Below, piece by piece: positions 23,800 to 42,005 of a stretch of 64,000 nucleotides of DNA. Position numbers and translations under genes: made by a program. The notes under the pieces were generated by a model. The model was not told the DNA's origin. It saw nothing but the letters and a program-made list of their open reading frames with translations, and searched no databases. Position 1 is the first letter of the stretch. Each line of letters opens with the position of its first letter. This DNA comes from Candidatus Latescibacterota bacterium (lineage in GTDB: Bacteria; Latescibacterota; UBA2968). Where the stretch lies: positions 3,968,001 to 4,032,000 of the forward strand of contig OZ240241.1 in assembly GCA_965198115.1 (NCBI GenBank), written 5' to 3'.

Positions 23800-24687
23800 A
23801 TGGAAACCCGCACACTCGGTAACACCGATCTCGAGGTCACCCGGCTCGCCTTCGGCGGCGCGCGCATCGGCTACGAAGACGTCACCGACGACCAGGTCGA
23901 CACCCTGTTGAACGGTCTGCTCGACAGCGGCATCAACTTCCTCGACACCGCCGCGTGCTATGACGACAGTGAAGAGCTCATCGGAAAGTATGTCAGCCAT
24001 CGACGCGATGAATATGTCCTCGCCTCGAAATGCGGCCACGTAGCCGGTGACGCCACGGGTGAGCCGTGGACGGCCGACACGATCCGTCACAGCATCGACC
24101 GATCGCTTCAGCGTCTCAAAACGGATCGCATCGACCTGATGCAGCTTCACAGCTGTTCCAAAGAGGTCCTGGAAACGGGAGAGGCCACCGAGGCTGTTCA
24201 GCGCGCTCAGGAAGCCGGCAAGGTGCGCTACACCTGCTTCAGCGGAGACGGTGAAAACGCTCTATACGCGATCGAATCGGGCGTCTTCGCTACATTGCAA
24301 ACCTCATTCAACGTCGTCGACCAGAAAGGGCGCGATTCCGTCCTCCCCGCGGCGGTCGAGGCCGGTATGGGCATCATCGCCAAACGACCGATCGCCAACG
24401 GCGCGTTCGGCTGGTCGGAGTCCCCCTACAACTACGCCGACGCCTATTGGGATCGCGCAAAGGCGATGACCGTTCCCGAGGGTGCGCCCGAGGATGGCAT
24501 CGAACTCGCGCTCCGCTTCACGCTCAGCCACGACGCCATTGACACGGCCATCGTCGGCACCACCAAACTGGCCAACGCGCAGGCCAACATCGCTTCCCTC
24601 GGCAACGGGCCGCTCGACGCAAACGTCATCACGTCGCTCCACAATCAGTTCGACAACCTGGGCGACGACTGGGACCAGCGAACTTAG
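23800..24687 (+). CDS. Aldo/keto reductase
   Basis: GINFLDTAACY, SLQRLKTDRIDLMQLH. Confidence 0.92.
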   Translation: METRTLGNTDLEVTRLAFGGARIGYEDVTDDQVDTLLNGLLDSGINFLDTAACYDDSEELIGKYVSHRRDEYVLASKCGHVAGDATGEPWTADTIRHSIDRSLQRLKTDRIDLMQLHSCSKEVLETGEATEAVQRAQEAGKVRYTCFSGDGENALYAIESGVFATLQTSFNVVDQKGRDSVLPAAVEAGMGIIAKRPIANGAFGWSESPYNYADAYWDRAKAMTVPEGAPEDGIELALRFTLSHDAIDTAIVGTTKLANAQANIASLGNGPLDANVITSLHNQFDNLGDDWDQRT

Positions 24688-25383
24688 ATGCAGATCCTGC
24701 CCGACATCTATCTCCTCGACGGTTTTGCCTATGCTGCGCACGCCAATTTCTACCTCATCCACACCGATGCGGGCAACATCATCATCGACGCCGGGACACG
24801 CCCCGATGATCTGAGGGTCGCGGACGAACGCTCGGCGCTATGGGACATCTCGCTCCAGCACGTCGACTCCCTTCTCCTCACCCACAGTCACTACGATCAC
24901 ATCGGAAACGCGGCGGAAATCCGACAACGTGGCGCGACCGTCTACGCCGGGCCGAGCGACGCCGAAGGCATCGAACGCTCCGACAACCGGACCGTTCCCT
25001 ACGCCGCCGGCTTCAAACTTCCTCCTTGCAAAATCGACCACGTCGTCACCGACGGAGACGTCATCGAAACCTGCGGTCTCCGTATCGAAACCATCCACGC
25101 GCCCGGTCACACGGACGGTTGTGTCATTTACCAACTCAACCACGTCGGCAAAACCATCTGGTTCGCCGGTGACGTCCTGATGGCGAAAGGGACCGATTTC
25201 GTCCCCGAGCTCGGTTGGCAGGGTGGAGAGGACTTCGACAAACCGACGTATATCCAGACGCTCAGGCGGCTGTCGGATTTGCCCGTCGACTGCTTACTTG
25301 CCGGTCACTATCTTCCCTATCTGCGTGACGGCCACCACCTCGTCGGCCGGGCCTACGTCAAGGCGCTTTGCGATTGGCGTTGA
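24688..25383 (+). CDS. MBL-fold metallo-hydrolase
   Basis: THSHYDH, APGHT, FAGD, LAGH. Confidence 0.9.
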   Translation: MQILPDIYLLDGFAYAAHANFYLIHTDAGNIIIDAGTRPDDLRVADERSALWDISLQHVDSLLLTHSHYDHIGNAAEIRQRGATVYAGPSDAEGIERSDNRTVPYAAGFKLPPCKIDHVVTDGDVIETCGLRIETIHAPGHTDGCVIYQLNHVGKTIWFAGDVLMAKGTDFVPELGWQGGEDFDKPTYIQTLRRLSDLPVDCLLAGHYLPYLRDGHHLVGRAYVKALCDWR

Positions 25384-29005: not shown

Positions 29006-29968
29006 ATGCTGCCCTCACGCGATGAAATCCAAGCCGCAGCAGAGATCGTTTACGCGGCAATGCCACCGACACCTCAGTATCGGTGGCCGATGCTGTGTGA
29101 GCGGCTCGGAACCGACGTCTGGGTCAAGCACGAGAATCACACGCCCGTCGGCGCATTCAAAGTGCGTGGAGGCCTGGTCTACTTCGCCGTACTCTCCGTA
29201 GATGCGCGAACGAAGGGCGTCATCTGCGCCACACGCGGAAACCACGGACAGTCCGTTGCGTGGGCGGCCAGACGCTACGACATTCCCGCAACGATCGTCG
29301 TGCCGCACGGCAACAGCCGCGAGAAGAACGCCGCCGTCCAGGCGTTGGGCGCCGTCCTCATCGAAAGTGGAGACGACTTCCAGTCGTCACTCGAACACGC
29401 GCAACGGCTTGCTGACGACGGCGGCCTGCATTTGGTCCCCTCCTTCGATACACCTCTCGTCGCCGGCGTCGCGACCTACGCCCTAGAACTCCTGTCCGAA
29501 ACCGACGACCTCGACGTCATCTATGTGCCCATCGGGCTCGGGTCGGGCATCTGTGGCGTGCTCGCCGCCAAACAGGCGTTGGGTCTGTCGATCGAGGTCG
29601 TGGGCGTCGTGTCGGCACACGCCCGGGCCTACGCCGAATCTTTCGCGAGCGGCCGACCCATCGATGCCCCGGTAACCACACGTCTGGCAGACGGGATGGC
29701 GTGTCGAACGCCTCATCCCGACGCCCTCGGCTTCATCCGGGAGGGTGTCGATCGCATCGTCGAGGTCACGGACGTAGAAATCGCCGAAGCGATGCGCGCG
29801 CTCTTCGAATGCACACACAACGTCGCTGAAGGCGCGGGCGCCGCTCCCGTAGCTGCCGCGATTCAGGAAAAGTCCAGAAACAGCGGAAGGAGAGTCGCCG
29901 TTGTCCTGTCGGGAGGCAACGTCGATCGCGACGTCTTCGCCAGCGTCCTCGATGGGTCCTTCACGTGA
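29006..29968 (+). CDS. PLP-dependent threonine/serine dehydratase family
   Basis: KHENHTPVGAFKVRG, ATRGNHG, PIGLGSG, VLSGGN. Confidence 0.92.
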   Translation: MLPSRDEIQAAAEIVYAAMPPTPQYRWPMLCERLGTDVWVKHENHTPVGAFKVRGGLVYFAVLSVDARTKGVICATRGNHGQSVAWAARRYDIPATIVVPHGNSREKNAAVQALGAVLIESGDDFQSSLEHAQRLADDGGLHLVPSFDTPLVAGVATYALELLSETDDLDVIYVPIGLGSGICGVLAAKQALGLSIEVVGVVSAHARAYAESFASGRPIDAPVTTRLADGMACRTPHPDALGFIREGVDRIVEVTDVEIAEAMRALFECTHNVAEGAGAAPVAAAIQEKSRNSGRRVAVVLSGGNVDRDVFASVLDGSFT

Positions 29969-30059
29969 AACCGTCTGGTCTGCAAGGTCATCCCGGCCCC
30001 GATCTCGAACCGAGTTTTTTCATTCCTCCTACCTCGCCCACGCCATCGAGACCGATCCG

Positions 30060-30500
30060 ATGACAAACCAGGCCTTCTTCCTATCGAACCAGATCGCCCT
30101 GATCGGATGGATCCTGCTGATTCTCCGTCCGAGATGGCGACTCGCTACGCACCTCATCTGTCCCGTCCTGATCCCCGTCATCCTGGGACTGCTATACTTT
30201 GGCCTGGTCATCGGATATTTTCCTCAAAGCGACGGTGAATACGGCTCACTCGATGCCGTGGCACGACTGTTCGAAAGCCGGCAGCTGTTGCTCGCGGGAT
30301 GGGTTCACTACCTCGCTTTCGATCTCTTCATCGGAGCCTGGCAGGTTAGAGACGCGTAGCGACTCGGCCTTCGCCACCTGACGGTCGTACCCTGTCTCTT
30401 GCTGACGTTCCTTTTCGGCCCAGTGGGCTGGCTCGCATACTATGGACTCCGATCGGTCCACAAAAGGAGCATCACACTCGATGATGACCCTGATCCGTGA
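30060..30500 (+). pseudogene. ABA4/DUF4281-like membrane protein with an in-frame TAG at 30357-30359
   Basis: AGWVHYLAFDLFIGAW motif. The frame continues past TAG as RLGLRHLTVVPCLLLTFLFGPVGWLAY, a typical family C-terminus. Confidence 0.8.
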
Positions 30501-37316: not shown

Positions 37317-37661
37317 ATGCCCTTTCTCTACCACATTACCTCCTCCGGCGCCTGGCTCGATCAGAAGGCTACCGGCCACTTCACCGACCCTTCTCTCGAA
37401 CGTGAGGGTTTCATTCACAGCTCACACAAGAACCAGATCGTTGGCGTCGCCGACAGAATCTTCGAGGGGCGGGTGGATCTCGTCATCCTCTGCATCGATC
37501 TGGACCGGCTTGAGTCACAGGTGAAGGAGGAAGACAGCCACGGTCACGGTATCTACCCACACATCTTCGGTCCGATCAACACCGACGCCGTCACCGATGC
37601 CGTGGCTTTCCCGCCCGATGACGCCCGGCGCTTTTCACTACCTGACGGACTCCCTGAATGA
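37317..37661 (+). CDS. DUF952 family protein
   Basis: LYHIT, SLEREGFIHSS, YPHIFGPIN. Confidence 0.9.
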   Translation: MPFLYHITSSGAWLDQKATGHFTDPSLEREGFIHSSHKNQIVGVADRIFEGRVDLVILCIDLDRLESQVKEEDSHGHGIYPHIFGPINTDAVTDAVAFPPDDARRFSLPDGLPE

Positions 37662-38351
37662 AGCCCGTCCTCATCGTCATATCCGCCGACCAGGAGTGGT
37701 CGGTGGTCCGCGAGCGATTCAAAGCCGCATCGGTTGACACATCGCCTTACGGAGAGTGGTTCGAGCTTCGCCTGCCAGATGTTGAAACACCCCTCACCTT
37801 CTTCCACGGCGGGTGGGGCAAGATCGCGGCGGCTGCGAGCGCACAGTGGGCGATCGACACGTTCCGACCCGATGTACTCCTCAATCTGGGCACGTGCGGA
37901 GGGTTTGAAGGCGACGTCGAGCGGGGCCAGCTCATTCCTCGTGGAACGGACGATCGTCTACGATATCGTCGAACAGATGCTCGACGAGGAGGATGCTGAC
38001 GATTACTACGGGTCCGAAATAGACGTCGACTGGCTGAAGACGCCTTTTCCGCAGGAGGTCACAAGAGCCGTAATGGTCTCTGGCAATCGTGATATCGTGC
38101 CGTCGGACATTCCCGGATTGAAGCGCGACTTCGGCGCCGTCTGCGGCGACTGGGAATCCGCATCGATCGCGTGGGTCGCGAGGCACAACGACGTGAGGTG
38201 TCTGATTCTGCGGGGCGTGTCGGACGTGGTCGGAGAGGAGGGAAGCGAGGCCTACGGGAACGTGGCGCACTTCGAGGAAGGTGCGGCGATCGTCCTCAAC
38301 GGGTTGCTCGATCACCTTGCAGAATGGCTCAAGTGCGCGGGGGTTGAGTAA
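37658..38351 (+). CDS. 5'-methylthioadenosine/SAH nucleosidase family, frameshift near 37935
   Basis: GWGKIAAA, NLGTCGG, then DWESASIA and LRGVSD in the second frame. Confidence 0.85.
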
Positions 38352-38361
38352 AAACGTCTGT

Positions 38362-38446
38362 TGCGTCCCTGTACTAAGCACAAACGCATTGTTTTTCAAA
38401 ATATATAATGCGTCACGCTCGCCCTCGTGCTCCGCACGAGGGCGCT
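38362..38446. repeat. Dispersed hairpin repeat, family A (copy 2)
   Basis: Homologous to 2815-2926. Stem GCCCTCGTGC-tcc-GCACGAGGGC between convergent genes. Confidence 0.8.
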
Positions 38447-38492
38447 TTTCCGCTTACGAAGGTTGTCGTGTTCTGCACGGCGACTCATTGCA

Positions 38493-39440
38493 TCAGACCA
38501 ACTCCCCCAGAAGATCGCGCCAGCTCGTTCGCTCCAACTCCGGGTCGACAATCCAGGCCTGGTTCTCGCACGCGGCAACGAGCGAGTCGTAGTAGCCTCG
38601 ATCCTCCTCGACCCGTCGCAGGAGATTCGTCAACGCGCTTGTGTCTCCAACAGGGAAGAACCCGGGGTAGGAGGGTCCTATCATCCCGATCGACCCGGAG
38701 ATACGCGAAGACAGGACGGGCACACCACACGCAAGGGCCTCCGACACGACGTTCGCACCGCCCTCCATCTTCGACGTCAGGACCAATAGCCGGCTTCGGG
38801 ACAGTACCTGCAACGCCCTCCACCTTGGATATTCCCCCCGCCAATCGTAGCGGTCATTCCGTCGCGTCAGCGTTTGCGCCCGATGCTTCATCCCCTCGGT
38901 GAGCGCGCTGCCGATGTGGGTCACCACGATTTTCGATGTCTTCGGGAGTTGCCGAACGGCTGCTTCCGTTCGAAACGGATCCTTCACGGGACGAAGGTGC
39001 CCCATCACACAGACTTCGAAGACCCTCCGCCTGGGGGTCGCGGGTTTGGGTCAGGTGCAGGATTGATAAATGACACGAGCCCGGGATCGCAAACGTCTGG
39101 GCAACTCCTTGATCCCGTCGGGCTGCAGCAGGACGAAACGATCCGCCAGGTCGAGGGACGCCTTCGCCCGGTCGCTCTTGTGGATATCTCCGTAAAGATC
39201 CGTGCCCGTCAGTGCGAGAATCAACGGGCGATCCGGATGACGCTCTCGAAAAGCGCGTATCGAGCGGTGGCTACGCCGAGCGTGAAGGGCCAAACAGACA
39301 TCGTAGTCCCCGGTATCATACCGAGTCGCGACGTTCACGCGATGTCCCAGGTTCCACAGGATGCGGGCCCAGCGGCTCGCCGTAATGCGGTTCCCTTTTC
39401 GCGATCCACGGGGAGCCGGTGTAATCAGGTTGATCTTCAC
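38493..39440 (-). CDS. senB: Selenosugar synthase SenB-type glycosyltransferase with an in-frame TGA at 39051-39053
   Basis: GTG start overlaps the senA stop. ITPAP..SRKGNRITASRWARIL, ALHARRS, LTGTDLYGD, GHLRPVKDP, SKMEGGANVVSEA. The two ORF-track pieces are in the same frame, separated only by one TGA. Confidence 0.88.
39021..39039 (-). promoter_or_regulatory. Candidate SECIS-like hairpin in senB
   Basis: Starts 11 nt after the TGA: GACCC-CC-AGGC-GG-A-GGGTC, with a G at loop position 2. Confidence 0.4.
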
Positions 39441-40744
39441 GTTTCCTGCGCGCAGGTGCGAAAGCCGACCCAGATATCCTGCCGGTCGGGGGTCTGGAAG
39501 TTTCGATAGTTCGTCCGGATCAGCCGCGAACGCGTCGCCCAGCACCCGCCGCGCATCGACTTCTGCGTCTCGAACCACGGTTCGGAGTATTCCTTGTAGG
39601 GGTCGGGCACGAACGCCGGAAACGGCAGGAACGCGTCACTCGTCCACTCCCACAGGTTCCCGATCATCTGACGACAACCCACCCCGCTGTCGCCCGACGA
39701 AAGTGCACCCACGGCGACGCACCCCATCGCGCCCCAATCCAGGTTGGCCTTGTCGGCGGACGGCCCCTCGTCACCCCAGGGAAAGCGCGGCTTCGATTCG
39801 GAATGCGTCTGGCCAGCGGTCGACGAAGCAGCAGCCTCCCATTCAGCCTCCGTCGGCAATCGACGACCCGCCCACCGACAATACGCGTTTGCCTCGAACC
39901 AATTCACGTGAATCACGGGCAGGTGGGGCTCCAGATCGACCCAGCGATCGAAATCCTTCCGAAGCCAGCCACCCTCCTTCTTCCAATACACAGGATGTTC
40001 TGAAGCGGCTGATTCACGCCACGCCCAACCTTCGTCGCACCACCATTCCCTTCGCTCATAGCCACCCTCTTCCACGAACGCGAGATAGGCCGACTGTGTG
40101 ACCGGCGTTTTCGAGATCGTGAAAGACTCGAGCTCAACGGGGTGCGCCCACTTCTCATTGTCGAACACGAACGGCTCGTCCCGCGTGGAGCCGAGCCAGA
40201 ATGTTCCGCCCTCCACGTCTACGTCACCGGGAACATCACCGCCATCGCTTTCTCCGACCTCACCGATGGCATCCGTAAACGTCGGTGCCGGATAGCCGTG
40301 TGTCTGGCGCGTGTAGGTGTGCGCCTCCGTGTGCATATCTTCGTGAAGTGTCGTATACAGCGCGTGATAGATAACCTCATCGGGCACGTTGGGCACACTC
40401 AGCGCTTCGATGGTGCGGTCACGCACCTCACGCATATAGGCCAACGTCTCGGCACGAGATGGCAGGAGAAGATCCCATCGCGTGTCGTGGGCAATCGCGA
40501 TCGAATCGTAGAGCGCATCCTCGTCCTCGCGCAGTGGCTCCTGACCACACGCCTCTCGCAGAACCCAACGCGACTGGAACCAGGCGTGATGGCCGATCTC
40601 CCAGAGTGGCGGATTGACGATCGACAGCTCGGGTCCCATCATCTGCTCGTCGGTCAGGTCCACGACCAGATCGAGCGTTCTCTGACGGGCGTCGACCACC
40701 CACTCGGCGAGCAGCTCTGGAGGGAAGTGTTCTGATAAAGACAT
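39437..40744 (-). CDS. senA: Selenoneine synthase SenA (EgtB-like non-heme Fe; DinB + FGE-sulfatase domains)
   Basis: VNPPLWEIGH, HEDMHTE iron ligands, FDNEKWAH, RLPTEAEWE, PDPYKEYSEPWF. Coupled to senB and adjacent to selD. Confidence 0.88.
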   Translation of the reverse strand: MSLSEHFPPELLAEWVVDARQRTLDLVVDLTDEQMMGPELSIVNPPLWEIGHHAWFQSRWVLREACGQEPLREDEDALYDSIAIAHDTRWDLLLPSRAETLAYMREVRDRTIEALSVPNVPDEVIYHALYTTLHEDMHTEAHTYTRQTHGYPAPTFTDAIGEVGESDGGDVPGDVDVEGGTFWLGSTRDEPFVFDNEKWAHPVELESFTISKTPVTQSAYLAFVEEGGYERREWWCDEGWAWRESAASEHPVYWKKEGGWLRKDFDRWVDLEPHLPVIHVNWFEANAYCRWAGRRLPTEAEWEAAASSTAGQTHSESKPRFPWGDEGPSADKANLDWGAMGCVAVGALSSGDSGVGCRQMIGNLWEWTSDAFLPFPAFVPDPYKEYSEPWFETQKSMRGGCWATRSRLIRTNYRNFQTPDRQDIWVGFRTCAQET

Positions 40745-40878
40745 TGGCAAACTCCCAGGATGCCCCAATATCCAGCCCACTCAGACCTCCCGCAAGGTGG
40801 TATCTTCGGTTGCCACACCGGGTGTTTGCCCGTAGTCTTAGGCCGTCACGTCGAACCTGCCAGCCGTTTGGAGACACA

Positions 40879-41931
40879 GTGGCACTGCTATCTCGAAAGA
40901 AGACCCTCACGAGCCTCGCCAAAACCTGCGGCTGAGCGGCCAAAGTCAGTCCGGTCGGACTGGGGAAACTGCTCGAAGCCTTGCCGAAGGTCCACGATCC
41001 CAACCTGCTCGTCGGGTTCGAAACCTCCGATGACGCCGGGATCTACAAGCTCAACGACGAACAGGCCGTCGTCGTCACCGCGGATTTCATCACGCCTCCA
41101 GTAGACGACCCGTTCGTGTTCGGCCAGATCGGCGCGGCTAATTCCCTGAGCGATGTCTACGCGATGGGGGGGCGACCCGTCACCTGCCTGAACCTGGTCG
41201 GATTCCCGTCCAAGGCGCTGGACGAGGAGATCCTTCACGGCATCGTCGAGGGAGCGCTCAGAAAAATCACGGAATCTGGGGCCGTCCTCGCCGGCGGTCA
41301 TACGACGGACGACGAGGAGCCGAAATTTGGTCTCTCTGTGACGGGTATCGTTCATCCCGAGCGCTACTGGAAAAACGCCGGCGCCCAACCAGGCGACGCG
41401 CTGGTCCTGACCAAACCGATCGGCAGCGGCGTCCTGTTCAACGCCAACCTCAAGGGCTGGGTCTCCGATGGCGCGCTCGCGGCGTGCCTCGACACCATCA
41501 TCACGCTGAACAAAACAGCCTGCGAGATCGCGCAGGAATTCGACATCCACGCCGCCACGGACATCACCGGATTCGGCCTCGCCGGTCACGGCCTCGAAAT
41601 GGCTGAAGGATCGGGCGTCACACTCAACATAAGGGTGTCAGACGTCCCCTTGATGGCCGAAGCCCTCGCGATGTATGAAAAAGGGATGACCACCGGCGTC
41701 AACGGCGAGAACCGGCGCCTCGTCCAGGATCACATCGCCTTCGAGTCCGGAATCCCGGCCTGGCACGAGGAAATCTTCATCGATCCCCAAACCAGCGGCG
41801 GCCTCCTCCTCTCCGTCGACGGCAACCAGGTCGACGCCCTCCTCGCACGGCTTCAGGGCGCCGGTGTCGAATCCGCAACCCTCATCGGCAAGGTGACTGC
41901 AAAGGAGGACGTCTACCTCCGGTTCGTTTGA
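40879..41931 (+). CDS. selD: Selenophosphate synthetase SelD/SenC, selenocysteine-containing (UGA at 40933-40935)
   Basis: GTG start after GGAG. In-frame LTSLAKTCG-U-AAKVSP at the canonical catalytic Cys/Sec site. DDAG, DFITP, ANSLSDVYAMGG, TDITGFGLAGH, DPQTSGGLL. Confidence 0.95.
40947..40962 (+). promoter_or_regulatory. Bacterial SECIS element of selD
   Basis: Perfect stem CAGTCC-GGTC-GGACTG starting 11 nt after the UGA, with a G-led apical loop. Confidence 0.85.
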
Positions 41932-42005
41932 TCGGATGCGGTCAGTGCGTTATCGATCTACCACGCCGCACTGGGCGAACAGCCGTCGGCCCCTACGGGT
42001 AATCG

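Follow-up and report, generated by a model that had tools for sequence, protein, structure and literature searches.

The senB gene of the Latescibacterota bacterium studied here, which encodes a predicted selenosugar synthase, carries an in-frame TGA at codon 130 that is in all probability decoded as selenocysteine (Sec). SenB very likely represents a selenoprotein family in which Sec occupies variable and apparently non-catalytic sites, because the TGA is conserved, is followed by a hairpin and lies in a gene under purifying selection, because the Sec machinery is present, and because 21 in-frame TGAs occur in senB against none in senA. We lean, with less assurance, towards the further reading that UGA130 and its hairpin would act as a translational gate, yielding full-length SenB only when charged Sec-tRNA is present. 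The gene lies in a stretch of 64,000 nucleotides that was analyzed as a whole (the window), and the features that bear on this reading are as follows.

38493..39440, minus strand: senB, predicted selenosugar synthase of 315 codons (TIGR04348, 388.4 bits against a cut-off of 300)
39051..39053, minus strand: in-frame TGA of senB, predicted to encode selenocysteine 130 in the hinge between the two domains
39021..39039, minus strand: bacterial SECIS-type hairpin, loop AGGC 18 nt past the TGA (fold and covariation)
39437..40744, minus strand: senA, selenoneine synthase (NF041186, 494 bits against a cut-off of 420)
40745..40878, no strand: short intergenic region between the divergent senA-senB and selD (from gene coordinates)
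40879..41931, plus strand: selD/senC selenophosphate synthetase with a Sec codon in CG-U-AAK (TIGR00476, 369 bits)
40933..40935, plus strand: selD Sec codon, TGA (from translation)
40946..40963, plus strand: selD SECIS hairpin, loop GGUC at +17, stem at +10/+11

The two halves of senB share one frame and are parted by a single TGA at 39051-39053, as had been read from the sequence, and this codon, 130 of 315, is the sole internal stop of the gene. The GTG start of senB overlaps the stop codon of senA, which begins with ATG and has no internal stop, while selD begins with GTG and has a GGAGA ribosome site (both starts as read from the sequence). No sigma-70-like site was found in the intergenic region 40745..40878. 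A hercynine source, egtD, scores over its cut-off at G000:5935445-5936350 (G000 being the genome of the window), away from senA-senB, and with senA, senB and the adjacent selD it completes the senABC selenoneine pathway set. UGA is not reassigned genome-wide, because TGA is the terminal stop of senA, senB and selD. Assembled contigs, rather than raw reads, from two public runs of one sample that is possibly the source of the window showed 0 differences from it over 38400-42000.

Conservation of the codon was examined in 168 genomes of the phylum, of which 31 have senB, and all 31 were read. TGA stands exactly at column 130 in eight of them (G000, G001, G002, G035, G042, G047, G052, and G058), in genes 59-79% identical to the senB of the window; these comprise seven of the eight senB-bearing genomes of its order and the single one of family f4. 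All 22 senB-bearing genomes of family f3 have sense codons at this column, the eighth genome of the order (G012) has TGC, encoding Cys, and L155, a metagenomic close relative of the window's senB, has AGA, encoding Arg. The closest named senB locus is that of Latescibacteria UBA6620 (79%). Recurrence of TGA or Cys in related genes, proposed earlier as a check on the prediction, was thus observed, with TGA in eight of 31 genomes and Cys in one close relative, and the losses to Cys and Arg in G012 and L155 count against the main reading. Across eight gene pairs, dN was much lower than dS on either side of the TGA, which indicates purifying selection on both halves of senB, and UGA130 has been kept across three families at dS near or at saturation, though TGC is one change away. 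The eight genes are kin and may represent one event (a single clade was neither rejected nor shown, p-AU 0.465), and the trees are so poorly resolved at depth that gains at columns 4 and 130 are not countable from them.

The hairpin (GACCCCC-AGGC-GG-A-GGGTC) begins 11 nt after the TGA, at 39039-39021, where it had been predicted, and the selD hairpin indeed sits at a like offset, with its stem at +10/+11 after the TGA at 40933-40935 and its GGUC loop at +17. Of the 19 retrieved loci in which selD was matched, 13 have TGA at this selD column. Two further parallels drawn with selD, a CCAAA spacer and a C-x-U context, are not conserved among the aligned genes and should be dropped: CCAAA occurs in only one of the eight TGA genes and in selD forms part of the A-A-K codons of UxxK, and Cys at position -2 is found in only two of the eight (Phe in five, Ala in one). 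By itself the senB hairpin is no stronger than shuffled sequences (z -0.68, 31 nt), an 84-nt segment around it folds differently, and such hairpins are equally common genome-wide after candidate TGA (27/314) and TAG (19/213) stops; it stands above chance because it is conserved, not by its single-sequence fold. The eight TGA genes share a seven-pair stem with an invariant GG in the loop, in which 91% of 56 cells are paired and four of the seven pairs show compensatory changes on both sides, and RNAalifold returned the same helix. This pairing was reached by 0 of 500 shuffles, with slid controls also far below, whereas ten relatives without the TGA, chosen from 23, showed 31% of 70 cells paired, a value reached by 281 of 500 shuffles; these counts are not probabilities, because the genes are kin. 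The hairpin conservation sought by the original prediction is therefore found as a covarying stem specific to the TGA genes.

Bacterial SECIS elements are described in section 5 of PMC13188914, within the accessible text, as having a loop of 3-9 nt with G in the first two loop positions, placed 16-37 nt after the UGA, and a free energy of -7.5 kcal/mol or below. Looser published rules are passed by 7/8 TGA genes vs 32/82 others, which counts against the main reading, while a tighter rule requiring a G[G/U] loop and ≤ -7.5 kcal/mol, the window of which was set after the column-130 hairpin had been seen, is passed by 8/8 column-130 TGAs against 5% of 212 other loci. In comparison with synonymous recodings of the same codons, the column-130 hairpin reached P ≤ 0.05 in five of eight TGA genes (six of eight in a second run) vs one of 22 genes without the TGA. 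The senB loop, at +18, falls within the +17 to +22 range of the ten conventional selenoprotein-family TGAs of the genome (seven AhpC/TSA, FdhA, Rdx, and SelD).

The decoding machinery presupposed by the original prediction is present, as selA, selB and tRNA-Sec are clustered at G000:3585303-3589736; selB was looked for in G000 only. Both selA and tRNA-Sec occur in all 17 genomes with a TGA in senB, and selA barely discriminates, being present also in 69 of 78 senB genomes without one (a tally that leaves out 16 Latescibacterota, G636 and ten weak Planctomycetota matches). Co-occurrence of senB and selA varied by phylum, from 49/49 in Planctomycetota and 17/18 in Acidobacteriota to only 3/11 in Pseudomonadota. 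The cluster at G000:C1:3585303-3589736 also holds, with selA-selB and tRNA-Sec, a TGA-containing AhpC/TSA gene, and a TGA is present in seven of the genome's 15 AhpC/TSA matches, which suggests a selenoprotein-rich genome. Two genome-wide scans for new Sec codons, one based on coding score and one on motifs, were drowned in antisense and chance frames and given up in favour of family searches; a TAG in an EF-Tu-like match proved to be the normal stop of that gene.

Codon 130 aligns to Ala135 of Variovorax paradoxus SenB (PDB 8JJN), within a hinge that the accessible portions of two structural reports delimit as residues 131-146 (PMC11237966) or 130-145 (PMC10702425). This agrees with the earlier placement of the site in the linker between the GT-B domains and with the suggestion that Sec130 is probably non-catalytic, a reading that is well supported because the site maps to this hinge Ala135. 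An AlphaFold model with Cys in place of Sec (pLDDT 95) shows coil at 124-140 and superposes on the solved enzyme 8JJN with a TM score of 0.93. The selenophosphate- and UDP-sugar-binding residues, those matching N20, H58, T83, T85, Q131, R155, K158, E231, and E239, are kept in 8/8 TGA genes. The column is variable over 220 distinct loci (Pro 69, Ala 40, Arg 24, Lys 18, Cys 2, and Trp 0). Sec130 thus lies in a hinge, with C-x-U in 2/8 genes, rather than in a redox motif or active site, and abundant Cys homologues are lacking at this column (2/220).

In-frame stops elsewhere in senB were sought in 220 distinct loci (68,717 codons), from which duplicates and short matches had been removed and which are biased towards sequences like the query. 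These contain 21 in-frame TGAs and one TAA, leaving 199 loci without a TGA; the 21 derive from 17 genomes and four metagenomic contigs. The TGAs fall at columns 4 (six loci), 5 (three loci, one lineage), 27, 130 (eight loci), 131, 164, and 170, and separate origins are indicated for different columns, because seven columns cannot share one origin. The 48,707 senA codons from 126 loci of the same set were free of internal stops. By phylum, named for the centre genome of each survey, senB was found in 63/401 genomes of Planctomycetota, four of them with one TGA, in 22/301 of Acidobacteriota, with two TGAs and one TAA (a tally that includes the unpublished, stop-free G636), and in 11/401 of Pseudomonadota, with no TGA; surveys centred on G061, G062, and G181 reached one, 12, and three genomes.

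The codon-4 TGAs, each followed by a hairpin with a GG-U loop (L016:4010, L056:1776, L270:3159, L272:454(-), L281:4254(-), and L282:1984), occur in Tectomicrobia, Planctomycetota, Acidobacteriota, and one further phylum, and if not read through would leave these genes to produce a tripeptide only. Among 236 loci, a degenerate codon-4 TGA pattern matched none but L016 and its duplicate. The remaining TGAs are at codon 5 (L191, L193, and L204), 27 (L271), 131 (L269, in a planctomycete, one codon from column 130), 164 (L151), and 170 (L165). Hairpins pass in six of six loci at column 4 against a background of 14%, and those at columns 5, 27, and 131 pass too; at column 4, however, only one of six beats synonymous recoding at P ≤ 0.05, vs six of eight at column 130. 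The singletons at columns 164 and 170 have hairpins that miss the threshold (-7.0 and -6.0), and the hairpin after the TAA, which serves as a control, nearly passes (-7.4, synonymous P 0.015).

From this pattern we infer a gate. SelB-GTP-Sec-tRNA would bind the GG loop and insert Sec130; when Sec-tRNA is lacking, the ribosome would stop and release a 129-residue N-terminal domain without the UDP-sugar-binding domain. SenB uses selenophosphate, as SelA does (bioRxiv 2022.04.13.486033, available text), and since both would consume the selenophosphate made by SelD, selenoproteins would get first call on selenium. The gate would sit on the committed enzyme of the route to the selenium antioxidant selenoneine, at its first step that consumes selenophosphate. 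Selenoneine synthesis would then be on only under selenium surplus, and SenB activity, by lowering Sec-tRNA, would damp its own synthesis through negative feedback. The gate is favored because the TGAs share a gene and neither a residue type nor a structural element, with none in senA; SenB takes selenophosphate and the senA product does not. The presence of Ala at the Sec column of the solved, active V. paradoxus enzyme also counts for it. A broader version is evenly balanced in our judgment: a UGA-SECIS almost anywhere in senB may be a pure regulatory sensor that arose at least five times, and as many as seven, in several phyla and that, by tying SenB translation to Sec-tRNA, apportions selenophosphate between selenoproteins and selenoneine.

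Two alternatives remain in which UGA is also read as Sec. One, which we regard as doubtful, holds that selection acts on chemistry, with a hinge selenol that would adjust domain closure, act as a redox sensor, or protect or hold selenium. The hinge, in which Gln131 contacts the sugar, was proposed to become ordered once UDP-GlcNAc binds (PMC10702425, accessible text), and the Sec site lies four residues past this Gln, a proximity counted against the main reading. Replacement of Sec by Cys in G012, conserved Cys residues at columns 144, 238, and 291 in the column-130 TGA clade, and the independent TGA one codon away in a planctomycete are likewise what a chemical role might leave, and the occurrence of Cys at column 4 in 38 of 210 loci, a Sec/Cys pattern typical of such a role, counts against the gate. 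Yet Cys occupies column 130 in only two of 220 loci, no redox motif is conserved, and the seven TGA columns, judged from the topology of the model, are scattered across its strand 1, helix 1, hinge, and second domain.

The other alternative, which we hold to be slightly more doubtful still, is that Sec is near-neutral here, the UGA being tolerated in selenoprotein-rich genomes wherever the coding sequence happens to offer a hairpin and thereafter kept for read-through only. Cys is common at column 4, where codons for Pro-Ala-Pro-x-Gly/Arg-Ser give the GG-U hairpin, largely reproduced by synonymous recoding, and losses to Cys and Arg do occur. Such tolerance, however, predicts similar UGAs in senA, which has none, and sits poorly with the persistence of UGA130 over three families at or near dS saturation.

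Programmed, selenium-independent read-through with another residue, such as Trp or Cys, is unlikely, and very much so. It has a precedent in the conserved UGA and hairpin, decoded without Sec, proposed for insect SPS1-UGA (PMC4561486, in the part available), but Trp is absent from all seven columns, the hairpin has the bacterial SECIS geometry of the genome's other selenoprotein-family genes, and tRNA-Sec accompanies every TGA genome. The remaining readings, a senB split into two proteins, a pseudogene or an assembly error, are invited by a GTG-ATG 15-16 codons past the TGA in G000 and G001 and by some broken genes in the genome, but are unlikely to the same marked degree and are excluded with good confidence, because eight genomes share the codon, both halves are under purifying selection, the assembled contigs are identical, and there is no shared restart, the first in-frame start varying from +9 to +72 codons among the eight genes, and a restart there would truncate domain 2 within its first strand.

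Our own scan of the window raised two TAG candidates: that at 24685 is an ordinary gene end, with the next ATG abutting it, and that at 30357 is a private nonsense change, the single homologue found (in one of five genomes) being stop-free; neither is followed by a hairpin. The latter interrupts a membrane protein gene at 29901-30494 (plus strand), the stop-free homologue of which is in G002. At 37658-38351 (plus strand) a gene resembling MTA/SAH or futalosine nucleosidase lies in two frames, with an apparent frameshift near 37940. L286 (G052:C1:2456947-2457483), a homologue of the metallo-hydrolase-like gene at window position 24688 onward, has two TGAs within the match, at least one of which may be the end of an upstream gene.

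Neither SenB nor a glycosyltransferase appears in Table 1 of PMC13188914, which lists 119 families, including those of Haft and Tolstoy 2025 (mSystems), as far as the accessible version shows. SenB is likewise absent from the main text and one supplementary file of BSepDB and from the main text of deep-Sep, and literature searches, subscription papers and bioRxiv supplements excepted, returned no Sec-containing SenB; the papers found that name SenB do not contain the term UGA. Sec is viewed as a redox residue with a catalytic role, and programs that detect selenoproteins depend on Sec/Cys pairs (PMC12013277, available text), so that proteins of the SenB type, in which Sec replaces Pro, Ala, Ile, or Leu, would be largely invisible to them, and annotation may treat their genes as broken. 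Should the gate prove real, selenoproteins and selenoneine would be linked by a simple priority rule, senB would offer a natural and compact selenium-responsive translation switch, and the retention of Sec for sensing rather than chemistry becomes a testable idea.

The protein itself resembles V. paradoxus SenB (TIGR04348; PDB 8JJN, 8JJQ, 8JJT, 8FBX, and 8RZ3), with 39% identity, a TM score of 0.93 and matching residues for substrate binding and catalysis, and its gene likewise has senA and selD as neighbours and an egtD elsewhere in the genome. The solved enzyme, however, has Ala135 and no recoding where the gene of the window has a hinge UGA and a SECIS-type stem, and selD is divergent in the window rather than in line. 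With catalogued bacterial selenoproteins such as FdhA, SelD, and Prx/Trx-like proteins, senB shares an in-frame UGA, a small G-led loop 16-37 nt downstream, and selA/selB/selC; in the catalogue entries available, Sec of those families mostly belongs to redox or metal-binding motifs and has many Cys counterparts, whereas the senB column is variable, Cys is rare there, and the position moves. Sec-containing SelD is likewise a selenium-pathway enzyme whose translation needs Sec, and it adjoins senA-senB, but its Sec is catalytic (UxxK) and it supplies the selenophosphate that SenB consumes, while Sec in SenB appears dispensable for catalysis. An in-frame amber codon in pylB, considered as a regulatory analogue, was not supported by the accessible text of PMC3941956. 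By analogy, the nearest regulatory precedent for the proposed gate is the E. coli selAB leader, where a SECIS-like element in the 5' UTR lets SelB-GTP-Sec-tRNA read selenium status to control translation (PMC13449736, available portion). That element is untranslated and repressing, whereas the one in senB is part of the coding frame and would allow an enzyme outside the Sec machinery to be made.
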